A stretch of DNA of 64,000 nucleotides from a virus. Its lineage: Duplodnaviria > Caudoviricetes. A program made the position numbers and the translations under genes. Positions 57,052 to 58,686 of this stretch are shown in pieces. The notes under the pieces are model-generated. The model saw only the letters and a list, made by a program, of their open reading frames with translations. It was not told the DNA's origin and searched no databases. Positions within the stretch are counted from its first letter, which is position 1, and each line of letters begins with the position of its first letter. The DNA lies in IMG/VR virus record IMGVR_UViG_3300029305_004466. One strand, written 5' to 3'.

Positions 57052-57207
57052 CATTTTGTTACAGCCGTATAGGGTATTTTTATATATATATTTTTGGGGG
57101 GACTTGGTTTAATATTATGAACTTTGATTCGAAGTTCGGAACCCCACCCTATTTTGAATGGGCAGGGTGAAACAACAAAATCTTATATTATGAAAGGAGT
57201 CATTATT

Positions 57208-57750: not shown

Positions 57751-57812
57751 TTAGCCTACAGCTCCCTAGTATACGGAGCTATATAAATAGTATACTACTA
57801 CCCCTATATACC

Positions 57813-57865
57813 CCCGTCTACATGGTATGAGTCCATGTACTGATGATGGCATGAGCCGAAACGGG
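57813..57865 (+). ncRNA. Hammerhead ribozyme, type III (copy 1)
   Basis: CCCGUC^ / stem I UACAUGG-CCAUGUA / CUGAUGA(U) / stem II GGC-GCC / GAAA / CGGG; predicted cleavage after 57818. Confidence 0.92.
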
Positions 57866-57924
57866 ATTATCAGTAAACTACTACATATATGTACCCGTTG
57901 CATAACAAAGGAAAGGAGTTCACT

Positions 57925-58248
57925 ATGATGAACACAAATTTAATTAATTTCGCAACTAATAAGGCTATCAATGACCATGATGGTAGAAAAGATGAATTAG
58001 CTGGTGTATGTTTACTTGCTAATGGCTTACTCGGAGCTATCCCTGCTACAAATAAGGCGTTCAGTATCAATGAATTGTATGTGGGTAAAGATGGCATGGC
58101 ACACATTAGTACCAATTCTATCAGTGGTACAGTAATGCCTTGGAATGACCTTACTACAAAAGAGGGTATCAAGGAATTTAATGATACCCTTACATTTGAT
58201 TCTAATAAGATAGTAAAGGTTATCTTCATTAAGGTTGTAGAAGCTTAA
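57925..58248 (+). CDS. Hypothetical protein enclosed between the two hammerheads
   Basis: AAAGGAG RBS before ATG 57925; 107 aa. Confidence 0.7.
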   Translation: MMNTNLINFATNKAINDHDGRKDELAGVCLLANGLLGAIPATNKAFSINELYVGKDGMAHISTNSISGTVMPWNDLTTKEGIKEFNDTLTFDSNKIVKVIFIKVVEA

Positions 58249-58280
58249 AGCTTATGGTCCTGAGCATGACCTTAAAAGGC

Positions 58281-58339
58281 TCCCGTCTATATAGGGTAGT
58301 GCCTATATACTGATGATGGCAGCTATAGCCGAAACGGGA
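58281..58339 (+). ncRNA. Hammerhead ribozyme, type III (copy 2)
   Basis: UCCCGUC^ / stem I UAUAUAGG-CCUAUAUA / CUGAUGA(U) / GGC-GCC / GAAA / CGGGA; predicted cleavage after 58287; stem I covaries with copy 1. Confidence 0.92.
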
Positions 58340-58407
58340 TTATCAGCTAACCTAACAAAAATACATATAACGTATACCCGTTATACGAAAAGAAAGGAGA
58401 TAGTATT

Positions 58408-58686
58408 ATGAGCTATCAGACAAACAATCAGGAAATCAAGGAAATGAGACACATCAGCTACAAGATTCAGAGTGCTGAAAGAAGAAAACAGAGAATTTAC
58501 AATGCCATCTGTACCGTATTAGGGTACATTGGTATGGCTATATTCTCTATAGTAACGGCTCTTTTCTTCATGTATGCATGGATTGAGGAAGACAGAAGAT
58601 GGAATCCACCTGTTCTCGATACGATTGATTATGTTAATCCATATGAGACACCTGATGAGGAACCTTGGTATGTACCAGAAGCATAA
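58408..58686 (+). CDS. Single-TM membrane protein
   Basis: AAAGGAG RBS; hydrophobic ICTVLGYIGMAIFSIVTALFFMYAW. Confidence 0.7.
   Translation: MSYQTNNQEIKEMRHISYKIQSAERRKQRIYNAICTVLGYIGMAIFSIVTALFFMYAWIEEDRRWNPPVLDTIDYVNPYETPDEEPWYVPEA

Follow-up and report, generated by a model that had tools for sequence, protein, structure and literature searches.

A candidate alternative-pairing module appended to predicted type III hammerhead ribozymes in a phage operon

Type III hammerhead ribozymes are known to flank genes in phage and prophage genomes (Perreault et al. 2011, PMC3088659). The DNA analyzed here, a 64,000-nucleotide stretch of a Caudoviricetes genome that is referred to as the window, is minus-strand sequence from a virus record of 210,290 bp that is rated complete (IMG/VR IMGVR_UViG_3300029305_004466; GC 33.6%). 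It contains a + strand operon that begins just past a divergent region near position 57100 (window coordinates), and a type III hammerhead is located in each of the operon's first two, consecutive, intergenic regions. Between each ribozyme and the ribosome binding site (RBS) of the next gene lies a hairpin whose CCCGU loop repeats one strand of the ribozyme's stem III, which raises the question of whether, and how, such a leader acts on the ribozyme itself. The original prediction had placed these hairpins, their loops, the sequence that continues from each ribozyme and the AAAGGAG sites on the window, and all of its coordinates match the sequence (Table 1). A core-pattern scan across the whole 210,290-bp genome returned only the two hammerheads and no third copy, no further Rfam family was detected between 57000 and 59200 at E-values up to 10, and neither leader contains a convincing sigma-70-like promoter. 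A small hairpin lies between the upstream gene's stop codon and each cleavage site, so the cut strand at the end of each 5' product would be preceded by a hairpin. The window differs at a single base (61097, G in place of T) from L341, a JGI contig of the same phage, and one position likewise distinguishes the phage's genome record from the window.

Table 1. Coordinates of the ribozymes, their appendages and the neighboring signals in the window.
Feature	Position	Strand	Description
Small hairpin, upstream of cleavage site 1	57761-57781
25-nt imperfect direct repeat	left 57789..57813; right 57872-57896	+	80% identity; right copy runs into decoy hairpin 1
Hammerhead 1, type III	57813..57865	+	full core, GUC site, three stems
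Hammerhead 1, stem III	5' strand 57813-57817; 3' strand 57861-57865	+	3' strand ACGGG
Hammerhead 1, cleavage site	GUC 57816-57818	+	C17 = 57818; cleavage between 57818 and 57819
Hammerhead 1, stems I and II	stem I hairpin 57819-57839; stem II 57848-57857	+
Hammerhead 1, core	57840-57847; GAAA 57858-57861	+	CUGAUGA plus extra U; GAAA
Continuation 1	57862-57873		CGGGATTATCAG
Tail 1	57866..57873	+	AUUAUCAG; 8/8 complementary (one G.U) to core 57840-57847
Decoy hairpin 1	57888..57904	+	6-bp stem with one U.G; loop CCCGU 57894-57898
Shine-Dalgarno and start codon, ORF B (57925-58248)	57912..57927	+	AAAGGAG 57912-57918; start codon 57925
Small hairpin, upstream of cleavage site 2	58256-58271
Hammerhead 2, type III	58281..58339	+	full core, GUC site, three stems
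Hammerhead 2, stem III	5' strand 58281-58286; 3' strand 58334-58339	+
Hammerhead 2, cleavage site	GUC 58285-58287	+	C17 = 58287; cleavage between 58287 and 58288
Hammerhead 2, stems I and II	stem I 58288-58309; stem II 58318-58330	+
Hammerhead 2, core	58310-58317; GAAA 58331-58334	+
Continuation 2	58335-58346		CGGGATTATCAG
Tail 2	58339..58346	+	AUUAUCAG; complementary to core 58310-58317
Decoy hairpin 2	58371..58387	+	6-bp stem; loop CCCGU 58377-58381
Shine-Dalgarno and start codon, ORF C (58408-58686)	58393..58410	+	AAAGGAG 58393-58399; start codon 58408

Both ribozymes contain the CUGANGA and GAAA core boxes, with one extra U after A9 (before stem II), and in both the NUH triplet at the junction of stems III and I is GUC; of the three stems only stem III (5-6 bp) is open, the other two being capped. 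Their Rfam scores are 22.8 bits (RF00008, gathering threshold 48.5) and 24 bits (RF02276, threshold 37), each below its threshold, which we attribute to the short stems, the inserted U and the unusual loops. Alignment of five related sequences reveals pairs that have changed on both sides in all three stems (6 of 7 in stem I, 1 of 3 in stem II and 1 of 5 in stem III), and 95% of the alignment cells in these stems are paired, as compared to ~25-40% when the partner columns are slid. Despite the Rfam shortfall, the sequence identifies both elements as type III hammerheads, which are predicted to be self-cleaving. The two window copies of the ribozyme and its appendage are paralogues and do not count as independent draws. 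In hammerhead 2, GAGCAUGA occupies the place directly 5' of stem III where several gut-phage hammerheads carry a GCAUGAGUAUAAACUGC-like motif; this motif immediately precedes the 5' strand of stem III in L310 (1640-1660), L326, L330, L328 and L329, all members of the same structural subfamily, whose hammerheads have stem II and the motif in loop I in common.

Downstream of the ribozyme, the blocks common to both leaders in an alignment are ACGGG-AUUAUCAG, UACAUAUA and the 6-bp hairpin. The 12-nt continuation CGGGATTATCAG has no other exact copies in the window, and the tail within it, AUUAUCAG, can pair with the catalytic core CUGAUGAU at 8/8 positions, one of them a G.U pair. This complementarity is 8/8 in all five aligned sequences, as the single tail variant still pairs: an A to G change in contig L349, the only one in its leader, retains core pairing as G.U. 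The leaders thus carry a conserved cis segment complementary to the core, one of the features expected of a cis-attenuated ribozyme. This complementarity formed no part of the original prediction, and in nearest-neighbor folding the tail is a stronger competitor than the decoy loop. Judging from the geometry, stem III and the core:tail helix should sterically exclude each other, since the tail abuts ACGGG.

The hairpin loop is identical to the stem III 5' strand and complementary to the stem III 3' strand ACGGG in both copies, as had been claimed, while the hairpin stems differ between them. Among shuffled leaders, 0.7-0.9% contain CCCGT at any position and ~1e-5 have it in the loop of a hairpin with at least 5 bp; on the + strand of the window the motif occurs 14 times, and only these two occurrences lie in such a loop. 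When the hairpins of the window and its relatives are compared, four of the six stem pairs have changed on both sides in a compensatory manner, and this co-variation indicates that the hairpin forms. Two of the four stems contain a U.G pair, which fits an RNA transcribed from the + strand. A 5-nt loop cannot pair fully unless its stem opens, so the closed hairpin and the pairing of its loop with ACGGG (the decoy pairing) would be alternatives to one another and not parts of one structure. Other roles for the hairpin were considered and rejected. It does not create a second cleavage site (CCCGU-U), because the bases that follow form no stem I with the pre-core strand in any of four sequences. 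The 5' arm of the hairpin mimics the 3' strand of stem I in the window copies but not in L310 or L294, and this idea was dropped. A terminator is not supported, as there is no U-run on the + strand; hairpin 2 gives a terminator-like match on the - strand, where no gene converges. A separate idea, that the 5' product might mask the Shine-Dalgarno sequence, was discarded as inconsistent, since a CUCC is present in hammerhead 2 only.

Relatives were collected by scanning viral, metagenomic and genome collections for exact patterns and by protein-guided contig look-ups. Contig L310 (4.9 kb) is a syntenic relative whose neighboring genes share ~35-45% amino-acid identity with those of the window; its single hammerhead resembles hammerhead 2 and has the same tail, and it is followed by a hairpin with unrelated stems and a CCCGU loop. 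Its substrate strand forms a U.G wobble in the true stem III, and the loop is still the perfect complement of ACGGG. The L294/L347 contig is unrelated (GC 46-48%) and carries the same tail; here stem III reads CCUGU/ACAGG and the loop reads CCUGU, in a hairpin that is near-identical to hairpin 1 and whose only substitution keeps the loop able to pair with the altered stem III. The spacing between hairpin and Shine-Dalgarno sequence is 5-7 nt in the window copies and 13-25 nt in L310 and L294. In L296, which is syntenic and resembles hammerhead 1, the tail is intact, stem III has an A.C mismatch next to the core and the hairpin is missing; this sequence also lacks ~19 nt of the left copy of the direct repeat. 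The ACGGG:loop pairing contains one co-varying pair and is unpaired in L296 only. The loop recurs in homologues, and three observations indicate that it must stay complementary to ACGGG: its co-variation with stem III in L294, the asymmetric wobble in L310 and its loss along with stem III integrity in L296. A link between the appendage and stem III is supported by this comparison, which covers ~3 independent lineages that have the element and one loop co-variation event.

Perfect anti-core tails without a hairpin occur in L311 (two copies) and L320, and neither tail nor hairpin is present in other members of the structural subfamily (the L130 family, L132, L215, L326/L330, L328, L329, L331 and L332); the hairpin is therefore not needed for ribozyme function. 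No hammerhead was found in the syntenic relatives L333-L340, L342, L343, L348 and L350-L354, which argues that the whole module is gained and lost as a unit. Positions 1-830 of L349 and 4400-5300 of L347 share a leader (hammerhead, tail, hairpin and RBS) that is 99% identical, and over the gene that follows the match declines gradually to 65%, so L349 is counted as a mosaic copy of L294 and not as an independent case; the ribozyme leader looks like a recombination boundary between the two. L347 (6.6 kb) has one decoy-bearing hammerhead and, 3.4 kb upstream of it, a hammerhead-like site around 1059 (+), which precedes an RBS and has a GUC, a stem I hairpin and CUGAUGAG; stems II and III of this site cannot be drawn convincingly. 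Relatives L335 and L338 encode, a few kb downstream of the syntenic region, a giant protein that matches PF05183 (RdRP family). A scan of viral contigs for the exact tail yielded chance matches only, a repeat scan with the tail pattern gave three matches, none of them a hammerhead, a protein-based search for the locus using ORF A and ORF B found nothing, and blastn and tblastn against phage records returned no match.

Among 53-59 other non-redundant phage type III hammerheads, none has a downstream complement of its stem III 3' strand in a hairpin loop, and the decoy was accordingly rejected as a general feature of this class. Anti-core sequences appear to be more widespread. In a set of 47 hammerheads gathered without reference to the tail, six have an anti-core stretch of at least 7 nt within 30 nt downstream of stem III, as compared to 1.8 expected from shuffles (p ~0.01 by our own Poisson estimate), and in four of the six the stretch starts no more than 3 nt from stem III. 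The six carriers (L010, L164, L189, L195, L218 and L327) are unrelated hammerheads with 7-8 nt complementary to the CUGAUGA core, and anti-core tails may thus be a wider feature of phage hammerheads. Contig L325 (Ga0209755_10241827) contains five tandem 91-nt hammerhead-like units, each with a AUCAUCAG stretch; this array looks like a satellite or retrozyme-type repeat and not a phage leader.

The leaders of hammerhead 1, hammerhead 2, L310 and L294 were folded with a nearest-neighbor model that has no tertiary terms. The active fold plus hairpin is predicted at -21.1, -23.6, -20.2 and -20.8 kcal/mol, respectively, and the core:tail fold plus hairpin at -20.3, -21.6, -21.3 and -21.6 kcal/mol; before cleavage the two folds are thus ~2 kcal/mol apart at most in this model. 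Once cleavage has removed the 5' strand, the core:tail fold gains ~5.5 kcal/mol, and its predicted pairing probability in the 3' products is 0.92, 0.2, 0.99 and 0.84, respectively. In none of the four 3' products does nested pairing of ACGGG with the decoy exceed a probability of 0.07; it is predicted only in full-length hammerhead 1, where it reaches 0.65 as compared to 0.13 for stem III; in the L294 3' product the hairpin is predicted to persist (0.98). The model therefore favors core:tail pairing and not loop pairing. Of the proposal that the decoy competes for or replaces the substrate strand, the tie between loop and ACGGG is borne out by the relatives; two of the effects suggested for it, a switched-off ribozyme and a block of re-ligation, may apply. 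Formed together, the two pairings would make an H-type pseudoknot of 13-14 stacked pairs, with loops of ~13, 0 and 19-30 nt, which is sterically acceptable and, by a rough estimate, has an energy within error of the hairpin-retaining fold. The Shine-Dalgarno sequence is unsequestered in either state, so the direct coupling to downstream translation that had also been suggested finds no support.

Judged by its conservation in sequence, the appendage is a real, lineage-restricted addition to a known ribozyme class. We tentatively favor the reading, in which our confidence falls a little short of even, that it is a cis-acting alternative-pairing module that would capture the 3' half of the ribozyme after cleavage and leave a structured leader before the RBS; because full pairing of the 5-nt loop requires its stem to open, two alternative states are the simplest way to picture it. 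The hammerhead would cut an early polycistronic mRNA between genes, and the leader retained on the downstream mRNA would hold two cis elements that target the 3' half of this same ribozyme. As transcription proceeds, the authentic upstream strand would be the first to make stem III, with the downstream copy caged in its hairpin, and cutting would be possible. The 5' product, bound by only 5-6 bp, would then depart, the tail would zip onto the core, and the freed ACGGG would either be taken up by the decoy as a replacement stem III or be stacked on the core:tail helix as the H-type pseudoknot of 13-14 bp. As a result, the ribozyme would be switched off, the 5' product could neither rebind nor be religated, rejoined ends would not be cut again, and the mRNA would begin with a compact 5' leader with a free Shine-Dalgarno sequence just downstream, a natural counterpart of the synthetic RiboJ insulator. 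We count in favor of the capture module the loop and tail complementarities, the loop change in L294, the loop of L310, the compensatory changes in the hairpin stem, the G.U-retaining tail of L349, the loss in L296, the lack of a decoy in the other phage hammerheads, the enrichment of anti-core tails and the predicted gain of core:tail pairing after cleavage, and against it the restriction to ~3 lineages with one loop co-variation event, the low decoy probabilities in the 3' products, the need to open the hairpin stem, the relatives that lack a decoy and the direct repeat at hammerhead 1. It is possible, if somewhat doubtful, that some phage hammerheads are self-inactivating single-use devices, in which an anti-core tail and a hairpin-caged substrate copy produce a pseudoknot lock after cleavage.

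The same tail and loop complementarities would also apply if the elements acted before cleavage, as an attenuator that competes with the active fold and sets the fraction of transcripts cleaved, thereby fixing the ratio of polycistronic to processed mRNA, possibly under the influence of temperature, Mg2+, ribosomes or a trans factor. The near-equal energies of the active and core:tail folds and the decoy pairing predicted in full-length hammerhead 1 are consistent with such a role, and typical hammerhead rates imply that tail and decoy would be transcribed well within the likely cleavage half-time. However, the decoy is caged in a co-varying hairpin, which makes it a weaker competitor, the predicted competition is inconsistent across the four sequences, and there is no evident sensor or ligand element, so we regard a pre-cleavage attenuator as unlikely. 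We assign a similarly low probability to an independent leader hairpin, serving as a 5' stabilizer, RBS insulator or protein-binding site, that arose by duplication of the substrate strand together with its flank and does not interact with the ribozyme at present. Such an origin would account for the direct repeat shared by the decoy region and the sequence 5' of hammerhead 1 (only 5 of 2000 shuffles score as high), the order of hammerhead, hairpin and RBS is that of synthetic RiboJ insulation (PMC6206723), and the persistence of the L294 hairpin also fits. Yet in hammerhead 2, L310 and L294, all of which have kept the loop, the similarity of the flanks does not reach significance, and flank duplication was therefore rejected as the general origin of the decoy; moreover, the L294 loop has changed with stem III, the L310 loop departs from the substrate strand in a way that preserves ACGGG pairing, and in L296 the element is lost along with the integrity of stem III. 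The shortened left copy in L296 suggests lineage-specific copying of the right flank into the left. The position of decoy 1 within a repeat of the ribozyme's 5' flank is compatible with origin by duplication, which does not exclude a present function.

In viroids, alternative folds keep circles from being cut again, and the two phage hammerheads might similarly control a circular RNA: both cuts would free a 469-nt RNA (57819-58287) containing ORF B, whose 3' terminus, UCCCGUC bearing a cyclic phosphate, would fit ACGGGA in hammerhead 1, and after self-ligation or joining by RtcB the tail and decoy would block re-cutting of the circle. Stem III and tail are identical in both hammerheads, and a chimeric stem III would have 6 bp; splicing or circularization has been raised for phage hammerhead pairs, although it was not detected (Perreault et al., PMC3088659). 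We nevertheless consider this route quite improbable, as hammerhead 2 has the same tail and decoy although the genome contains no third hammerhead, L310 has a single decoy-bearing hammerhead within its 4.9 kb, and L347 has one, apart from the hammerhead-like site upstream. Chance resemblance, with the loop under no selection, is hardly credible: the genome is AT-rich and palindrome-rich and the window copies are paralogous, but the arrangement is rare in shuffled leaders and recurs with co-variation in other contigs.

Alternative folds are known to silence hammerheads in viroid-like RNAs. The capture module would resemble these, as well as engineered cis-blocking strands (PMC3553993), in that a cis sequence pairs with parts of the ribozyme and an inactive conformer competes with the active one; those cases are circular replicons or laboratory designs, whereas the elements described here lie in a linear phage mRNA leader and comprise two blocking elements, one of them held in a hairpin. 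The window ribozymes share with the phage hammerheads of PMC3088659 a full core, a GUC site, an open stem III, an intergenic location just upstream of an RBS and an arrangement of two copies that bracket one gene. They differ from them in their extra U between A9 and stem II, their sub-threshold Rfam scores, the core-complementary 3' tail and the downstream copy of the substrate strand. Neither tail nor decoy is described in PMC3088659, and no description was found in the other literature searched, in line with the original prediction, in which no described hammerhead carried such an appendage. RiboJ is a synthetic insulator in which the sTRSV hammerhead and a 23-nt hairpin precede the RBS (PMC6206723). 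As in RiboJ, a hammerhead, here predicted to be self-cleaving, a hairpin and an RBS follow in order, and the mRNA is predicted to have a structured 5' end after cleavage; the phage leaders thus place a ribozyme and then a hairpin directly upstream of an exposed RBS, a likeness that is a functional analogy only. In the engineered RiboJ, the hairpin was not designed to be complementary to the ribozyme, whereas the phage loop is complementary to, and co-varies with, stem III and is accompanied by an anti-core tail.

A conserved, co-varying module aimed both at the core and at the strand that binds the substrate would show that phage hammerheads are regulated once they have cut, or beforehand, and it would offer an easily mutated handle on the effects of cleavage, such as the stability and translation of neighboring genes. 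It may also be a natural template for the ribozyme insulators and switches of synthetic biology. If the single-use lock is true, processing would be irreversible and the spent ribozyme would become a protective, RBS-exposing leader, and the enrichment of anti-core tails in unrelated phage type III hammerheads would then point to a general design principle and not a one-off.
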